Below are positions 1 to 64,000 of a stretch of DNA of 64,000 nucleotides, piece after piece (the first letter of the stretch is position 1; each line of letters opens with the position of its first letter). The notes below the pieces were generated by a model. That model searched no databases and had not been told where the DNA came from. It worked only from the letters and a program-made list of their open reading frames with translations. Location: the UHGV virus genome UHGV-0087418; one strand, written 5' to 3'. Origin of the DNA: a virus. The position numbers were made by a program, and so were the translations under genes.

Positions 1-730
1 CACGAGTACGTGGCATTTTAACTACTTTACCAGGACTGTTATCAAAAGTATTTGAATGGCAGTCAAAGTAATTACTGCGAACTACTTTCCAAGCATAGAA
101 GTAGCCGTCTTCCGTAATTTCAATATCGTTTGCTACCAAGAAATCAAAGAGTCGAGATACCGCCTTTTGGCTCGGGTTTTCTAACAGATTTTCCAAGAAC
201 GGAAAATAAAATTCAAAGTTTTCGCCTTTTTCCATCGAATCGAGAATACGATCAACTAAACCAGATCGCAATTCAATATTTTGATAGAACAAGCTTCCAC
301 CTTCAATTCGAACATCACCGGAAATATATTTTTCAACAGCGCGACGAACGTTAATTTTTTGTGCCGCTTCTTCCAATTTATCTGCAACAAGCAGATTAAG
401 AATTTCCTGGAAGTTTGAATGAGTATTAGGAGTTGCGTTATAAGTTACACCATCAACAGTAATTGAAATGAATTTTTTAGATGCATTCCAAATAATGTCA
501 GATTTAGCAACTGGAGCAATAGCTGTATCGCTATTAACTTTAACAGTAATGTCACCGCTAATAGTAACTTTGGAGCGCTCAGCTTCTTCAGCATTTTTCA
601 AAACACGACGGATTGTGTCAACCGATACACCTTGCCAATCAGCCAATTCCTGTTGGGTGTAATTACCACTTGAATACAGTTTGACAATTTCAGCTTGTTC
701 GTTTTTGGTCAGGCATTTAATATTGTACAT
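1..730 (-). CDS. rIIB: rIIB protein, 5' portion (ORF runs off the window start)
   Basis: Minus-strand ORF with ATG at 728-730 (MYNIKCLTKNEQAEIVKLYSSGNYTQQELADWQ...), open to position 1; recognised as T-even rIIB and lies directly upstream of rIIA. Confidence 0.85.
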   Translation of the reverse strand, partial: MYNIKCLTKNEQAEIVKLYSSGNYTQQELADWQGVSVDTIRRVLKNAEEAERSKVTISGDITVKVNSDTAIAPVAKSDIIWNASKKFISITVDGVTYNATPNTHSNFQEILNLLVADKLEEAAQKINVRRAVEKYISGDVRIEGGSLFYQNIELRSGLVDRILDSMEKGENFEFYFPFLENLLENPSQKAVSRLFDFLVANDIEITEDGYFYAWKVVRSNYFDCHSNTFDNSPGKVVKMPRTR

Positions 731-741
731 AATTTTCCTTA

Positions 742-2919
742 TTAGGCCGCAAGGGCCTTCATAGTTTTAGCGATTTGGGAAACTTCATCATCACTTAAAG
801 AGTTGCGATAACCGATGAAGTCGGAAACAATACGGAATTTCTTGGTAAACTCAGCAACCATTTTATCACTGTTTTTTGAAGCATTATTTGATAATACATC
901 AAAAAGATTAGTTACTGTCCAGATGTCATGACCGATGGTATCTTTTCCACCGTTGAAATATACACCCTGTAATGAACTAACCATATTAGCGAGTCGTGTA
1001 TATTCTTCAGAAACTTCATCTACACTGAAGTACTTCATCATAAAATCTAACTCAGGATACTTGATAATTTTATCAATATATCGTTTAGCTGAACTTGAAT
1101 AACCTACATACTTATCATAATCTACATCATCAAAAGCATCTACATATAAATCACGCAGAGTTTCAAAAATACATTGGCACTGACCAAGTTCTTTTACCTT
1201 TTTCTGCAAAAGCGGACGAATAACATAAAATTCATTAATGCCAATAAGATTAGCCATACGAGTCAAAATACTCGTAGATGGATGACAAAGCGATGTAGTA
1301 CCATCCATAGAGAAAATATCAGAACGATGCATATATGCTACATAGCCAGTAATTTCATCTGCTTCTGATGTGAGTGTAAACAGTTCCTCTTTTTCCCAGC
1401 GTCCGTCTTTAATTTCAAACTTAAACGCAGTAGCAGCTTTAGGACGAGGAGCTTTACTTTTTACTGCCTTTGGAATATAACTTTTAACTAAAGCTTCAAT
1501 TTCTGACAAATAATGAATGTTAACTTCATCACTTTCAAACATTGCCATAATATCAGGGAGTAAATCAATCTGCGATTCTACTTCCGGATTAATAAACAGA
1601 AGACGCTCATTATGATGAATATTTAAGGTGTTATTAAATTCACTATCATCTAACGCATGCGCTAATCCACGGACAATATTAACACGATTTTTAATATTAT
1701 CAATAACAATATTAATTTTTGTTGTATTAATACCAAATAGACGATAACTTGATGCAACGGCTGAAGTTTCATGACTTTGCTTAATGCGTTTCAGTCGAGG
1801 GTCAAGATTTACTTCATACACAACTCCTGCATTGCATAACTTACTGTCAGGTTCAAACATGCTTTGCATCTTCTTATATGAAAGATTTTTAGTCGTAAAT
1901 TTGACTGAATTACTAATCATATAATCTCGAGCAGAATATCCCATCTTCATCAATTCACGGTATGTATGACGAGGAGATGTAGATTCTTTAAATCGTTTTA
2001 CATCTTCATTGAATGCCTTCTCACTAAGCTCTTTAACACGCTCAATAATATTTTTACGAGTACGATCATCCAGTGAAAGAGCCTCACGCGATGGAGCAAT
2101 ATCAAGTGAACCCATTGGAAACTTAATGTAATTCACTTCATTGCGGATGCTTAACCAGTTACGGTCTCTAATAACACCATCGATAGGATAAACAATACCA
2201 CCATAGATAGCATACAATCCACCACGATCTGGCCAGTATCTTTCTGGATTTACGCCGTAATAGTCATCAAAATCCGGAAAATAATCAATTTCGCGGTCAA
2301 GACCATTAATGATAGCCAAATCTTTGAATGGTCGCATGATATAAGAAACTTCATAAGCAAAGTTTCTAAAGTCTTTTTCTTCAACTGGAACTACGATTTC
2401 AATACCAGTTTTATCATCTGGACCCATTTCTTTTACAAACGTAGGTTTAATCTGCGGACCGTCACCATCCATGTAAGCTACATAACCACGAATTTCACCT
2501 TTATGGTACGAAGTAATACTAAACGTATCAGTATAGCTAAACGGAGATTTAGAACCTAAACCAAATCCACCAATGAAATCGTTAGATTCGGCTTTAGATG
2601 AACTAAAGTATGAATTATACAACCCAGGAGAATTATCATCACCCTGAATATCAAAATCGCTCATACCCGGACCAAAATCTCGACAAACAAATCGCGGATC
2701 TAATCGTCCTGGAACTTGAATGATAAATTTTTCAGGATTTCCATTGAGAGCATGGGCATCAATCATGTTGGTAATCAATTCACGGACTACTGCGCGAATC
2801 TTGTTTGTATACAAATCAGATGACAGAATTTTGAATACTTTAGGAGATGCTGTGATGCTAAATGCTTTTGATTTAGAACCATTACCAAGAATTGTTTCTT
2901 TTTCAGTGGTGATAATCAT
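742..2919 (-). CDS. rIIA: rIIA protein
   Basis: 725-aa ORF, the length of T4 rIIA; N-terminal GHKL/HATPase-like motif [14 protein letters not shown]; rIIB-rIIA synteny. Confidence 0.9.
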
Positions 2920-2929
2920 AATTTCCTCA

Positions 2930-3133
2930 TTAATTCATATTGCGTTTAATAACTTCAGCAACTTCTAGTAGTTCATCTTTAGTTGCGGTGTCGGATTGAA
3001 TTTTATCTCTAATATCCTTAAAGCGGTTTTTAAACTCTTCAGCTTCTCCCATATCGAAAAAGCGTTGAATGATTCTATATTCTCGATGAACTGCTTTATC
3101 AAAAAGTTCTAAATTTACTCTATATGATTTCAT
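2930..3133 (-). CDS. hypothetical protein (rIIA.1-like position)
   Basis: 67-aa ORF between the topoisomerase gene and rIIA; early promoter immediately upstream. Confidence 0.45.
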
Positions 3134-3158
3134 TTCAATATCCTCATTTGCCCAATTA

Positions 3159-3188
3159 ATTATACCACATCCTTGTGGTAAAGTAAAC
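3159..3188 (-). promoter_or_regulatory. T4-type early promoter (GTTTAC -35, GTATAAT -10 read on minus strand)
   Basis: Plus-strand 'gtaaac' at 3183-3188 and 'attata' at 3159-3164, about 18 nt apart; upstream of rIIA.1/rIIA. Confidence 0.5.
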
Positions 3189-5008
3189 TACTGGCTCATC
3201 CATTCTTTACGAAGGTCAGCATTATCTCCCATGAGCATTTCAAAAAGCTCTTTCCAGTTCTCAGGAAGTTTAACAACATCATATACTGGGTTTTGAATCA
3301 TCTCACGATATTCAGATTTTTCCAAAGAGCCAAGTCCCTTAATATAACGGATGCTATGTTTAGGTAGAGCATCTTTGGCACTCTCATATTCAGCGACTGT
3401 ATAAAACCATTCTTGTTTTTTACCGACCTGAGCGATGATTACAGGAGTTTTGACGAAACGAATTCTTCCTTGTTCAAACAGTTCTGGCCAATTACTAAAA
3501 AATCCGAGCAGAGAAGGATAAATGCTTCCTAGACCATCATGGTCGGCATCGGTCATAATTGCAATATTATGATAATTCAAGTTTTCGGCTTTTTCACCAA
3601 GAACTAATCCAGTGATTGCGCAAATATCAAATAGTTCTTTGTTTTTAAGCATATCAGCATATGACATACCCCAGCTGTTAAGAACTTTACCGCGTAATGG
3701 ATAACCACCATGAAGTTCTTTATCACGAACATCAATAAGATATCCGATAGCCGAATCACCCTCAGTCAAGAAAAGAGTAGTGTCAGCATCTTTACCACAA
3801 AGATTCGCTTTAATATGTTTATGAACCTTAGCTTTAGAAGCCTTTTTAGCTGCTTTAGTTTCTGCTGCCTTTTCTGCCGCCAATTTACGAGCCAAGGCAG
3901 CTTCAATAATTGGCATTAAAATTGCTTCATTATTTAAAATAGCGCGTGAAATCTTTTTAGCATCAAGCTGAATATGACTACGAATTTCACCAAATGGAGA
4001 AGTCAAACGCTCTTTAGTTTGAGAATCAAATCGCATGTTTTTCATATCACGAACAAACATAACGATAGTCAAACATTCTTTAACACGTGCTTTAGTTACA
4101 TCAATTTTGAACTTGCGTTTGATTTGTGGAATAAGGTCTTCACAAATATCATCCATAACGCAGTCAATGTGATGGCCACCATTCTTAGTATGAATGTTAT
4201 TGACGTATGTTAATTGACGAAAACCATCCGGTGAACGACCAACCGCAATAGAACAATTTTCTTGTTCTTGAACAATAGCATGCTCATCATATTGGCGTGC
4301 ATATTTCTTAAAATTGCCCTGAACCTTTTTACCATTAAAGGTAAATTGAATATCAGGATAAACTACTGCAAGTGTCTGGAGACGATCCAGTGTAATGTCA
4401 AGATAAACTTGAGATAGCTCATTAGTTTCAAATGACATAAAATCAGGAATGAAAGTAACACGTGTTCCTTTCCATTTTCCAGGAATATCTTCCCATGATT
4501 TATTTTCCATGCCATTTGAACAACGAACTACAATATTATTTTGACCGTCGCCAGTTTCACCGACAAACATCACAGAAAAAATGTTAGTTAAACTAGAACC
4601 AACACCGTTCATACCGCCAGTGACGCGTTCTTTGTCATCACCAAAGTTACCACCTGCTTTTGGAATAGTCCAGGCAGCAACAGGACCAGGAATTTCTTCA
4701 CCAGTAGGTGTTTTAACCATCGCTTGTGGAATACCACGACCGTTATCTTCAACTGTTACTTGATTGTTTTTAATAGTAACATTAATTTTATTTGCGAATT
4801 TAAACTTAGTACGAATACCTTCATCTACCGAGTTATCGATAATTTCATCAATAAGCTTAACAAGACCAGGTACATACTGAACACTTTCCCATTTACCAAA
4901 CAGAAAGCGCTCATGCATTTCATTAGCGGAAGAGCCAATGTACATGCCGCTACGCTTTTTGATATGTTCAATATCGCTCAGAATTTTAATTTCATTCTTA
5001 ATCATCAC
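3188..5008 (-). CDS. 39: DNA topoisomerase II large subunit, fused 39+60 type (GyrB-like ATPase)
   Basis: 606-aa ORF with GHKL ATPase and TOPRIM-like motifs; length matches the fused form found in T-even phages other than T4; no separate gene 60 or bypass segment seen. Confidence 0.9.
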   Translation of the reverse strand: MMIKNEIKILSDIEHIKKRSGMYIGSSANEMHERFLFGKWESVQYVPGLVKLIDEIIDNSVDEGIRTKFKFANKINVTIKNNQVTVEDNGRGIPQAMVKTPTGEEIPGPVAAWTIPKAGGNFGDDKERVTGGMNGVGSSLTNIFSVMFVGETGDGQNNIVVRCSNGMENKSWEDIPGKWKGTRVTFIPDFMSFETNELSQVYLDITLDRLQTLAVVYPDIQFTFNGKKVQGNFKKYARQYDEHAIVQEQENCSIAVGRSPDGFRQLTYVNNIHTKNGGHHIDCVMDDICEDLIPQIKRKFKIDVTKARVKECLTIVMFVRDMKNMRFDSQTKERLTSPFGEIRSHIQLDAKKISRAILNNEAILMPIIEAALARKLAAEKAAETKAAKKASKAKVHKHIKANLCGKDADTTLFLTEGDSAIGYLIDVRDKELHGGYPLRGKVLNSWGMSYADMLKNKELFDICAITGLVLGEKAENLNYHNIAIMTDADHDGLGSIYPSLLGFFSNWPELFEQGRIRFVKTPVIIAQVGKKQEWFYTVAEYESAKDALPKHSIRYIKGLGSLEKSEYREMIQNPVYDVVKLPENWKELFEMLMGDNADLRKEWMSQ

Positions 5009-9548: not shown

Positions 9549-10868
9549 TCACACATAAAACACATCATAACGACCACGAGTGACACCAACATAAAGAAGC
9601 TGCTGAGCCAATTCAGCGTCTGCATAATGAATACAAGGCGTATAGATGAAAGCACGGTCTACAGACATGCCCTGAGCTTTGTGAAATGTTGATGCAGGAA
9701 GTGCTTTCACTTTACTAAACTGTGATTTAGCATCCCAAAAATCACTCCACGGAGCTTTTCCACCTTTATTCCAATTTTTATAAGTTTCTGCCGTTTTACC
9801 TAAAAATAAGTTAAACTTATACAGCTCTTCATCAGATGAAATTATTTTAATCTTTTCACGATAATATTCATCGTCGCCGTAAGTTTCTACTGTTAAATCC
9901 CAATGACGAATTAGATATTCTCCAGAAACACCACGAGCTTTAACAAATGTTGATGTATACTCTGCTTCTATAATACGAACTAATTGTCCGTTATTAAAAA
10001 TAATTTCTGACACAGGCTTTCCATCAATTTTATATGTTTTAATTAATGGTTCCTGCATTACAATAATTTCACCAACGATAAAATCTTTATCAGTTTCAAA
10101 AATCTTTTTGCGAATAATGCTATTTAACTTATCAACAGATTTATTCGTAAATGCCATTACGCGATTTTCAAACAAATCATCTAGTGATTTTACGATTGAA
10201 AAATAATTTACCATAAAATCGCGTAAAGCGGTATCACCAGTAAATCCACGTACTCCATGCCCGTCAACAACTTTATCATAAATCCACTTACCGTTGCGAA
10301 CATCAGTAGCTACATCAATAATAGGAGCATTACTGCGTTTAACTTCAGTGAGTTCACACTGATAAAAATCTTTATGTGTAAAGAATGGGCTGATATAAGC
10401 AGTGTTTTCTCCTGGGTCAACAGGTCTAATTTGCTTATTATCGCCTATTCCAATTATAGTACACCATGGCGGGATAGTTGAAAGTAGAATTTTGAATAGC
10501 TTTCTATCATACATTGACACTTCGTCGCAGATTAATACTCTACATTTAGCTAAATCTGGTACTTCTTTTTGTTCAAAAAGAACGTTTTCTTCATATGTTA
10601 CCGGGTTGATTTTGAGAATACTGTGAATAGTACTCGCTTCTTTCCCTGACAGTTTTGAAAGAATCTTTTTAGCTGCATGAGTAGGAGCTGCTAAAATAAT
10701 ACCAGTTTCGCCTGTAGATATTAAGGCTTCAATGATGAACTTAGTAAGAGTAGTCTTACCAGTACCAGCAGGTCCATTAATAGTTACATGATGTTTCTTT
10801 TCTTTAATAGCCCTCATAACGATGTTAAAGGCATTTTTCTGGCCTTCTGTCAAATCATCAAATGTCAT
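9549..10868 (-). CDS. dda: Dda DNA helicase (SF1B)
   Basis: 439 aa; Walker A GPAGTGKT and helicase motifs; length matches T4 Dda. Confidence 0.9.
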   Translation of the reverse strand: MTFDDLTEGQKNAFNIVMRAIKEKKHHVTINGPAGTGKTTLTKFIIEALISTGETGIILAAPTHAAKKILSKLSGKEASTIHSILKINPVTYEENVLFEQKEVPDLAKCRVLICDEVSMYDRKLFKILLSTIPPWCTIIGIGDNKQIRPVDPGENTAYISPFFTHKDFYQCELTEVKRSNAPIIDVATDVRNGKWIYDKVVDGHGVRGFTGDTALRDFMVNYFSIVKSLDDLFENRVMAFTNKSVDKLNSIIRKKIFETDKDFIVGEIIVMQEPLIKTYKIDGKPVSEIIFNNGQLVRIIEAEYTSTFVKARGVSGEYLIRHWDLTVETYGDDEYYREKIKIISSDEELYKFNLFLGKTAETYKNWNKGGKAPWSDFWDAKSQFSKVKALPASTFHKAQGMSVDRAFIYTPCIHYADAELAQQLLYVGVTRGRYDVFYV

Positions 10869-37921: not shown

Positions 37922-38128
37922 TCACAGTTGCCACCATTTTTTGACTTGATAGGAATCAACCCACACTTTCATATTAGGGTCTGCTCTTACAATAGGAGGA
38001 TTAACTTCTTTAATTGAACTATCATGGTATTCTTTTTCAGAAATTTTCACACAAAGATGACCATTCAAAGATTCAGTAAATCCTGCATTAATTTTAAGAC
38101 GCTTGAATTTTACGTTTGTAAGCATCAA
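37922..38128 (-). CDS. hypothetical protein
   Basis: 68-aa ORF. Confidence 0.35.
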   Translation of the reverse strand: MMLTNVKFKRLKINAGFTESLNGHLCVKISEKEYHDSSIKEVNPPIVRADPNMKVWVDSYQVKKWWQL

Positions 38129-59765: not shown

Positions 59766-59953
59766 TATTCTTCTACGTGTTGTTTACGACCTTTCTTATC
59801 AATAAAGGTATATTCAACGAATGTTCCAATATAGTCTTTATCTACACCATGTGGACTATTAATTGGGCATTTAGTACGGCAAATGCGTTCCCATTGACGA
59901 ATAATTTCCACTTTGTTTTTAGGATCAAACGGATGCGGGTAATGTACTTTCAT
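59741..59953 (-). CDS. hypothetical protein
   Basis: 70-aa ORF. Confidence 0.35.
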   Translation of the reverse strand: MKVHYPHPFDPKNKVEIIRQWERICRTKCPINSPHGVDKDYIGTFVEYTFIDKKGRKQHVEEYCLKVTWL

Positions 59954-60404
59954 AATCCACCACTATTAAATCAATATCAGGAGTAAACATGTCGATTAAT
60001 TTAGAAACCTTATCCCAATCGCCGCCAGCAATACCGCAACCTATACGTGGAATGTAAATTACTGGTTTAAACAAAAGGGTTTCTGCCTGTAGATTTAATT
60101 CTATCATGCAGTTTACTAAAGCACCATAATCAAGATTAGGACCCGGTTCGTATTGTGTATACAGGTTATAGCATATACCAAATCCCGTAGGGCTATGTTT
60201 AAAAACAATAGACATATCGCCTAATTTATCACGAGAACCGTACTCGGTAGTGGTTTTATCTATTTCTAAAATTTTGGGATAGGCTCTTGCTAATTGACCC
60301 GCTACGCCAGAGCCCATTGTGTGGAAGCAATTGCACCCGTGCGCAATAATATTACCTTGAAGAAATAGGGCGACAATATCGCCCTTGATATATTTTACAA
60401 TCAT
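59925..60404 (-). CDS. macro-domain protein (ADP-ribose binding/processing)
   Basis: 159 aa; KGDI...NIIAHGCNCFHTMGSGVAGQ and IPRIGCGIAGGDW match macro-domain signature regions. Confidence 0.6.
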   Translation of the reverse strand: MIVKYIKGDIVALFLQGNIIAHGCNCFHTMGSGVAGQLARAYPKILEIDKTTTEYGSRDKLGDMSIVFKHSPTGFGICYNLYTQYEPGPNLDYGALVNCMIELNLQAETLLFKPVIYIPRIGCGIAGGDWDKVSKLIDMFTPDIDLIVVDYESTLPASV

Positions 60405-61814: not shown

Positions 61815-62135
61815 TTATTCTTTAAATCTAATCAATTTATTCATAGACTTTGAAACTTCTGCACGGACCTCATGTAGGTTTTTAAGCTGTTCAAGACGTT
61901 GCTCATAGTAAGCAATTTCATCTTCTTCGAGGCAGTCCTGTGAATCTTCTTTAAGATAACGCGCATAGTCCTGGAAAGCGTTACGAATTACTTCCTGGAA
62001 ATCATCAAGACTTTGAATTTTCTTAGGAGCAACAGATACACGACGAGGGGCAGTATAATACTCATAACCAAACCCTGCGCTTAATTGAGCCATTAATATT
62101 TTTCCTCTGGTTGGAATACCGCGCGACAAGCCCAC
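61815..62135 (-). CDS. hypothetical protein
   Basis: 106-aa ORF. Confidence 0.4.
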
Positions 62136-62395
62136 ATACTAGCTTCTTTGAGTTTCGTTTTAGCAATAGTTAGCTGATCAAGGCTTTCAGCATAATTCTT
62201 TGCGAATTCGTAGTCTTCGCAATTATCTAGTGCTTCCCAGAATTCATCGTATAAAGCGTCAAAGATAAGTCCTAAACGAACTTCAGCGTCTTTAATAGCA
62301 TTCACTTTATCGATTTTCTCTTCAGTGTGCGGCTTATAACCTTTAATATCTTCAATCATATTTGACTTCCTCACCCGTTCCCAAATCATATTCAA
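62093..62395 (-). CDS. hypothetical protein
   Basis: 100-aa ORF; start may be internal. Confidence 0.4.
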
Positions 62396-62573
62396 CTAAA
62401 CGAATAGGTTCATGAATGCCATATCCTTGAACAGAAATTTCTGTCGTAGGATAAATTCCATTAATATCACCCATGTTCCACGCTTCATTAAATTGCTGTT
62501 CGCCTGAATTACTAAACCATTCTGCAAAAGCATTTAACACATCTTCAGAACCTTCAATAATTATCTTTGCCAT
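62352..62573 (-). CDS. hypothetical protein (last phage-type gene before the junction)
   Basis: 73 aa; AT-rich phage codon usage; its ATG (62571-62573) overlaps the grcA stop codon in a TAATG arrangement. Confidence 0.45.
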   Translation of the reverse strand: MAKIIIEGSEDVLNAFAEWFSNSGEQQFNEAWNMGDINGIYPTTEISVQGYGIHEPIRLVEYDLGTGEEVKYD

Positions 62574-62956
62574 TACAAGCTCTCAGTAAAGGTACGAGCG
62601 ATAACGTCGCGCTGCTGTTCCGGAGTCAGAGAGTTAAAGCGAACTGCATAACCGGATACACGGATGGTCAGCTGCGGATATTTTTCCGGATGCTTAACTG
62701 CATCTTCCAGAGTTTCACGACGCAGAACGTTAACGTTCAGGTGCTGACCACCTTCAACGCGAACTTCTGGTTTCACTTCTACTGGAACTTCACGGTACTC
62801 AATGTCACCCAGTTTGCTTACTGCAACCACTTCGTCTTCTGCATAACCTGCTTTTGCAACGATGCAACGTGCTTCGCCTTTTTCGCTGTCCAGCAGCCAG
62901 AAAGAGTTCAGCAGATCGTCGTTAGCGGCTTTAGTAATCTGGATACCTGTAATCAT
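62573..62956 (-). CDS. grcA: autonomous glycyl radical cofactor GrcA (YfiD), host-type
   Basis: 127 aa from [16 protein letters not shown]... to ...[29 protein letters not shown] (glycyl-radical motif RVSGY); GC-rich E. coli codon usage unlike the flanking phage DNA; the ORF-track N-terminal extension MPGRHH is discarded. Confidence 0.9.
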
Positions 62957-63063
62957 GTGATGCCTCCCCGGCAAAATTATTTGATTTGTTCAGCCTGTCG
63001 CGGCCAATTGGTAAAACCATTGTTGCTTGAGTGTATATATACTCCTCAAACACCCTTGAATCT

Positions 63064-63077
63064 TTGATTTAAATCAA
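63064..63077 (-). promoter_or_regulatory. FNR-type binding site (TTGAT-N4-ATCAA) in the grcA promoter region
   Basis: Perfect palindrome ttgatttaaatcaa at 63064-63077 upstream of grcA; grcA is known to be FNR-activated. Confidence 0.55.
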
Positions 63078-63260
63078 TAAAAACCACACATCAAGTGTGG
63101 TCGCAAATGGATTTTATTGTTTTACATCAACTTATGCGGGTGTGAAATTTTACCAATTTACATTTTTTTGCACTCGTTTAAGTCTAAAAAATGAGCATGA
63201 TTTTGTTCTGTAGAAAGAAGCAGTTAAGCTAGGCGGATTGAAGATTCGCAGGAGAGCGAG

Positions 63261-63950
63261 ATGGCTAACGAATTAACCTGGCATGACGTGCTGGCTGAAG
63301 AGAAGCAACAACCTTATTTTCTTAATACCCTTCAGACCGTCGCCAGCGAGCGGCAGTCCGGCGTCACTATCTATCCACCACAAAAAGATGTCTTTAACGC
63401 GTTCCGCTTTACCGAGTTGGGTGACGTTAAAGTGGTGATTCTCGGCCAGGATCCTTATCACGGACCGGGACAGGCGCATGGTCTGGCATTTTCCGTTCGT
63501 CCCGGCATTGCCATTCCTCCGTCATTATTGAATATGTATAAAGAGCTGGAAAATACTATTCCGGGCTTCACCCGCCCTAATCATGGTTATCTTGAAAGCT
63601 GGGCGCGTCAGGGCGTTCTGCTACTCAATACTGTGTTGACGGTACGCGCAGGTCAGGCGCATTCCCACGCCAGCCTCGGCTGGGAAACCTTCACCGATAA
63701 AGTGATCAGCCTGATTAACCAGCATCGCGAAGGCGTGGTGTTTTTGTTGTGGGGATCGCATGCGCAAAAGAAAGGGGCGATTATAGATAAGCAACGCCAT
63801 CATGTACTGAAAGCACCGCATCCGTCGCCGCTTTCGGCTCATCGTGGATTCTTTGGCTGCAACCATTTTGTGCTGGCAAATCAGTGGCTGGAACAACATG
63901 GCGAGACGCCGATTGACTGGATGCCAGTATTACCGGCAGAGAGTGAGTAA
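63261..63950 (+). CDS. ung: uracil-DNA glycosylase
   Basis: 229 aa, [25 protein letters not shown]... with the UDG active-site motif [14 protein letters not shown]; E. coli-type sequence and composition; divergent from grcA as in E. coli K-12. Confidence 0.95.
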
Positions 63951-64000
63951 ATTTGCGGGAAAATGCCGGATGGCAGAGTTGCCACCCGGCTGATTTATCA

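Follow-up and report, generated by a model that had tools for sequence, protein, structure and literature searches.

Y06I of phage T4, the product of vs.6, was described as an autonomous glycyl radical cofactor which, like E. coli YfiD (GrcA), repairs oxygen-cleaved pyruvate formate-lyase (Wagner et al. 2001, as quoted in an excerpt of PMC8683613). The T4 protein has 120 aa with a phage N-terminal half (MKAYQILEG...), and its gene locates between vs.7 and vs.5. On the E. coli chromosome, the gene grcA (yfiD) is followed downstream by eamB and is arranged divergently to ung, beyond which the synteny continues with yfiF, trxC, tapT, patZ and pssA. Two FNR sites, at −40.5 and −93.5, were reported for the yfiD promoter (Green et al. 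1998; Marshall et al. 2001; both as quoted in an excerpt of PMC10208419).

Two described kinds of join between replicons come closest to the one analysed here. In Campbell-type integration, as in plasmid or Hfr-type co-integrates, duplicated homology flanks one replicon unit and markers are exchanged reciprocally. In the repeat-induced chimeric contigs of short-read assemblies, the join falls within an exact repeat, the reciprocal junction is found one replicon length off, the parents are known separately and the join recurs in other assemblies. The contig that holds our locus has the topology of the former and all of these features of the latter, the join here being known from contigs alone.

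The DNA analysed here is a 64,000-nt stretch of a viral genome record (the window), whose left part is phage DNA and whose right end is the grcA-ung locus. A preliminary description of this stretch had proposed that the right side is true chromosome, or at least 1.4 kb of freshly captured host DNA, with the host grcA promoter and ung retained intact next to the phage. We compared both parts with phage and E. coli genomes, traced the contig from which the window was taken, and weighed the ways in which such a join could have been made.

The phage and host parts of the window

The left part of the window (positions 1 to 62582) is Tequatrovirus (T4-type) phage DNA, which is collinear with hundreds of T4-type phage records at 95–99% identity. 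With the gene names taken from T4 (NC_000866), the gene order is rIIA, DNA polymerase, nrdD, alpha-glucosyltransferase, tk, vs, regB and vs.5, and the final phage-diagnostic bases are found at 62578 and 62582. The GC content is 0.30–0.39 in the phage part (to about 62 kb) versus 0.42–0.48 in the final 2 kb. The final purely phage gene in the list of open reading frames (ORFs) is vs.5 (62352 to 62573, minus strand, 73 aa). Its exact protein exists on many T4-like contigs, where vs.5 always lies directly downstream of vs.6. In the window, the ATG of vs.5 overlaps the stop codon of a grcA-type ORF (TAATG). Two other known T4 genes near the junction carry recognizable domains. The product of vs.4 (62093 to 62359, minus strand) has the Acb2/Tad1 hairpin domain PF24729 of an anti-CBASS/Thoeris sponge family, and that of tk.4 (59925 to 60404, minus strand) has a Macro domain.

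The window consists only of E. coli chromosomal DNA from 62744 to 64000, with a best identity of 99.3% over 62760–64000. All 5,426 closed E. coli genomes contain this segment. It comprises the 5' part of grcA and the promoter of that gene, in which there are two FNR sites, then the whole of ung and, at the end, the yfiF stop codon. The translation of the grcA-type ORF (62573 to 62956, minus strand, 127 aa) equals E. coli GrcA (WP_000627807.1). It starts with the E. coli-type MITGIQITK, it is preceded by the E. coli promoter and not by vs.7, and its product on the source contig carries the glycyl-radical domain PF01228. The uracil-DNA glycosylase gene ung (63261 to 63950, plus strand) encodes 229 aa that are exactly a very common E. 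coli Ung protein, which 11,848 index blocks contain. The last three bases, 63998 to 64000 (minus strand), are the yfiF stop codon, and this gene runs on past the window on the source contig.

The divergent arrangement of grcA and ung was found in 5,426 of 5,426 closed E. coli genomes, and no difference was observed between the window and E. coli strain 88-3493 from 62583 to 63307. The host promoter and ung are intact beside the phage DNA, and the preliminary description was right that a complete ung stands here in its E. coli arrangement. The ung DNA allele is less common than its protein: no closed E. coli genome matches it better than 99.3%. Compared with strain 88-3493 over 63308–63528, 8 of the 10 differences cluster in 63482–63528, which looks like a small recombination patch.

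The grcA-ung intergenic region is 304 bp long. The promoter-proximal FNR site of grcA, TTGATTTAAATCAA (63064 to 63077), is a perfect TTGAT-N4-ATCAA palindrome, just as had been described, and is the same as the E. coli sequence. An upstream site, TTGTTTTACATCAA (63117 to 63130), was assigned by motif scan and literature and has the form TTGTT-N4-ATCAA with one mismatch. Both sites lie upstream of grcA with their centres 53 bp apart. Compared by spacing, they agree with the sites at −40.5 and −93.5 quoted above for the yfiD promoter. The motif itself does not mark this place. With at most one mismatch allowed, 11 matches were observed in the AT-rich window versus 9.3 expected, which is not above chance, and another perfect match was found at 37946, inside phage DNA. 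The site at 63064–63077 is authentic because of its homology to E. coli, not because of motif statistics. A hairpin like that of a terminator, with a stem of 8 bp and then a T run (63082 to 63102, minus strand), lies between the two FNR sites and is native E. coli sequence. No family was matched in an Rfam scan of 62000–64000, and the promoter and terminator scans gave nothing above chance.

The shared stretch and the reciprocal junction

The two parts of the window do not meet at a point. The match to phage DNA extends to 62757 and the match to E. coli begins at 62569, so the two overlap. By comparing both copies on the source contig, we found a 161-bp stretch (62583 to 62743) in which the 3' part of host grcA and the 3' part of phage vs.6 are identical. 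The grcA-type ORF is a hybrid at the DNA level: its last 10 nt, which include the stop codon context, are of phage type, 161 nt common to phage and host adjoin them, and the remainder is of E. coli type. The sequence is E. coli-type from 62744 rightward, and the 161 bases between the diagnostic sites belong to neither parent in particular. As judged from these diagnostic sites, the switch from phage to host is a crossover inside shared sequence and not a blunt join at 62573, where the preliminary description had put the boundary. It is the segment 62583–62743 that holds the crossover.

The ORF can be compared with both of its relatives. It shares with T4 vs.6 the 3' end of about 170–185 nt and the position directly upstream of vs.5, but it encodes 127 aa with an E. 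coli N-terminal half. With the E. coli locus, the window and its source contig share the gene order, the orientation, the GrcA and Ung proteins and the synteny beyond ung. However, phage DNA replaces the last 10 nt of grcA, the terminator and eamB, so that vs.5 and further phage DNA stand where E. coli has eamB.

The source contig was reached by looking up the exact vs.5 protein. The look-up gave two ENA contigs on which E. coli grcA, ung, yfiF, trxC, tapT, patZ, pssA, yfiM and kgtP precede vs.5. The window is part of ENA ERZ724095 NODE_1_length_353259_cov_22.95 (NODE_1 below), with 100% identity over the 11,649 nt compared, and a window position w corresponds to the record position w + 280,142. 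The contig name gives a coverage value of 22.95 for NODE_1 as a whole. Past the window, NODE_1 continues with 9.1 kb of collinear host DNA (yfiF, trxC, tapT, patZ, pssA, yfiM, kgtP) to the contig end. The identity of this right flank to E. coli chromosomes is 98.6–99.8%. Extending the contig beyond 64000, as had been suggested, thus brought yfiF, trxC and further E. coli synteny, and phage sequence did not resume after ung. These results bear out two earlier proposals, that the right side is true chromosome and that the host segment extends past the end of the window.

The same contig contains a reciprocal junction. There, the phage genes e, ipII, denV, vs.8, vs.7 and a phage-type vs.6 run directly into the E. 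coli grcA terminator, followed by the host genes eamB, yfiE, srmB, trmN6, nadB, rpoE, rseABC and lepA. The true phage-type vs.6 of the window's phage therefore sits at this reciprocal junction, 168 kb off. Its diagnostic bases mirror those of the window, with phage type on the 5' side of the repeat and E. coli type at the stop codon. The two stop codons are found at the record positions 174,363 and 342,715, and the distance between them, 168,352 bp, is one phage genome; related T4-type phage records have 164.8–170.3 kb. The layout of NODE_1 is E. coli lepA to eamB, the shared stretch, the 5' part of vs.6, vs.7, the whole phage, vs.5, the shared stretch again, the 5' part of grcA, and ung to kgtP. 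At 353 kb, the contig is about twice as long as any related T4-like phage genome or a T4 headful.

The join was absent from the reference collections searched. A pattern for the exact junction, consisting of the phage stop-codon context, 168 nt and a 22-mer specific to E. coli, gave zero matches in IMG/VR, in the JGI metagenomes and in the species genomes of GTDB. The 4.6 kb of phage DNA adjoining the junction is present in 0 of the 5,426 closed E. coli genomes, and the grcA-5'/ung DNA gave zero matches among 50,697 phage records.

A second contig, ERZ27239000 k119_54599 (183,435 bp), has the same kind of join in an independent assembly made with MEGAHIT. Its phage strain (95.5% identity) and its E. 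coli strain (97.5%) are both different from those of NODE_1. The switch falls in a segment (locus positions 9800–10001) where the exact identity would be about 80 bp if the phage allele is like that of its closest relatives, and is at most about 106 bp.

Several other records with an unusual context were met during the searches. Other exact vs.6/vs.7 variants lie on contigs of 489,447, 352,897, 215,140, 196,677 and 192,801 bp, which exceed any T4-like genome and are probably more phage-host or phage-phage chimeras. When more chimeras were sought by exact look-up of two further proteins, only normal phage contexts or a rearranged phage record were found. The deposited T4-like phage records OM632671.1 (193,190 bp) and Shigella phage KNP5 (KX452698.1/NC_055713.1, 193,624 bp) exceed their relatives in length by about 25 kb. 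The vs.6 gene of OM632671.1 is cut down to 91 aa, and a 685-aa ORF and a topoisomerase gene stand before it at the usual place of vs.7, which suggests rearrangement or misassembly. NCBI assemblies with the labels E. coli, Shigella sonnei and Salmonella enterica (e.g. GCA_032868875.1, GCA_039690175.1) also include complete T4-like genomes as contigs, and a 410-bp fragment labelled Enterococcus faecalis was found among these T4-like sequences. The proteins of T4-like contigs in bacterial assemblies bear WP_ accessions. Such contigs in isolate assemblies look like phage contamination or carriage in sequencing.

DNA exchange between vs.6 and grcA

The vs.6 gene of Tequatrovirus is a mosaic. Over its last 180 nt, 168–178 positions (93–99%) agree with E. 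coli grcA, and the identity of its 5' part is only about 50%. For the 3' segment of Mosigvirus vs.6, the identity to E. coli grcA is 95–96%. In the T4-like phages that infect Klebsiella, Citrobacter and Enterobacter, the 60 C-terminal residues encoded are the same, but the nucleotide identity to E. coli grcA is only 82–84%. Protein constraint therefore accounts for about 83% identity, and the rest points to a recent transfer from E. coli or gene conversion by its DNA. Two polymorphic sites within the shared stretch show the same three haplotypes in the E. coli and the phage alleles. Taken at the level of nucleotide identity, these comparisons point to recent or recurrent DNA exchange, by transfer or gene conversion, between E. 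coli and its T4-type phages at vs.6/grcA.

We also compared the vs.6 3' ends of the Klebsiella, Citrobacter and Enterobacter phages with grcA of their own host genus. No host-specific near-identity was observed among 80 species representatives, a set without K. pneumoniae. The near-identity seems to be particular to E. coli phages, to Tequatrovirus and less so to Mosigvirus. A literature search for a link between grcA and T4-like phages found no specific report. The exchange at vs.6/grcA makes occasional real recombinants plausible, but it does not make it likely that such recombinants would dominate a sample.

Origin of the join and its meaning

Our comparisons establish what both parts are, that host and phage share an exact repeat, that a reciprocal junction lies one phage genome away, that host synteny goes on past the window, and that the closed genomes and phage records searched lack the join. 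We infer that the adjacency of phage and host was most probably made by the assembler and is not a real phage-host hybrid. The contig name NODE_1 is of SPAdes style, and the exact repeat of 161 bp is longer than the maximum k of SPAdes. SPAdes works with k up to 127, and the default of metaSPAdes is 55. In a de Bruijn graph with k below 161, a circularly permuted phage genome would be a cycle that touches the chromosome path at a shared node. An assembler would resolve such a cycle on a path by walking in, going once round and walking out again, and the SPAdes path extender does resolve simple cycles by traversing them. The phage would thus be threaded into the chromosome contig because its cycle shares a repeat longer than k with the chromosome path. 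Many isolate assemblies of E. coli and Shigella include complete T4-like contigs, which means that both genomes are often sequenced together, and the join is expected to recur wherever this happens. An argument against an assembler artefact is that read pairs whose inserts exceed 161 bp should, in principle, let an assembler keep the two genomes apart.

The MEGAHIT contig fits this explanation less simply. Its exact stretch of about 80–106 bp is shorter than the final k of 119, so that plain repeat collapse fails to explain it, and in this respect one of the two cases here differs from known repeat-induced chimeric contigs. An extra assumption would be needed, namely bubble popping or carry-over from a smaller k across a segment of about 185 bp with 93–95% identity.

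The alternative that most needs weighing is a real co-integrate, in which one T4-like genome unit was brought into the E. coli chromosome by homologous recombination between vs.6 and grcA, of the Campbell type or by double crossover. Such molecules could be recombination intermediates in infected cells or a carried state. The structure is the exact product that a reciprocal crossover in the 161-bp identity would give, the contrast between 93–99% and 82–84% nucleotide identity over the 3' segment shows past exchange at this very place, and the same join appears in another sample and with another assembler, where the switch is shorter than k. The same layout, however, is also what a graph assembler gives by default when it meets this topology. 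Phages of the T4 type are strictly virulent, and they degrade the DNA of their host. A cell with a whole T4 genome is expected to die, co-integrate molecules should be rare relative to the parental ones and not dominate an assembly, and none of the 5,426 closed E. coli genomes contains the phage DNA. Known Campbell-type co-integrates differ from our case, where the inserted replicon is a virulent, host-destroying phage with linear, circularly permuted DNA, with 0 stable examples in closed genomes. We therefore consider a real co-integrate unlikely. That the contig records real molecules, in which the 161-bp identity with vs.6 let a whole T4-type genome recombine into the E. coli chromosome at grcA, appears slightly less probable again. 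If it were true, virulent T-even phages would form chromosome co-integrates often enough to be assembled, and grcA/vs.6 would be a natural hot spot of ongoing phage-host DNA exchange. The hot spot is suggested independently by the nucleotide identity of 93–99% versus 82–84%.

Two readings that keep the join real without homologous recombination of whole genomes fare worse. The window alone, with 1.4 kb of host DNA beside 62.5 kb of phage DNA, would fit a phage genome that has captured the grcA promoter and ung, in the manner of a moron or of a transducing-type insertion with phage DNA on either side, and the 3' part of vs.6 is indeed host-derived. But the host DNA measures 10.5 kb up to the right contig end and at least 10 kb past the other junction (eamB to lepA), none of the 50,697 phage records holds the grcA-5'/ung DNA, and a contig of 353 kb is far above the T4 headful. 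Captured host DNA is thus a very improbable source of the join, and a phage carrying 1.4 kb of freshly captured host DNA, the other option of the preliminary description, is ruled out, since host DNA reaches too far at both ends of the contig. A temperate prophage integrated by an integrase at grcA would agree with the chromosome flanking the phage on both sides. The phage, however, is 95–99% identical and collinear to virulent T4-type phages, the junctions consist of 161 bp of gene homology instead of att sites, and no closed genome has the insert. On these three grounds we rejected an integrase-type prophage, whose probability we put lowest of all, close to nothing.

With an assembly artefact as the preferred explanation, the host part is a textbook grcA-ung locus and the phage part an ordinary T4-type genome, and their adjacency in the window carries little biological weight. 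The 161-bp vs.6/grcA identity matters as a recurrent trap by which T4-like genomes are threaded whole into contigs of E. coli, with two confirmed cases here and several more suspected among contigs of 190–490 kb that bear phage genes. In viral catalogues, chimeric contigs of this kind can be mistaken for prophages, for cases of transduction or for auxiliary host genes. In conclusion, it is the host-identical 3' segment of vs.6 that is a real signal: it is the trace of recent recombination between T4-type phages and their host, and it merits a small population-genetic study.
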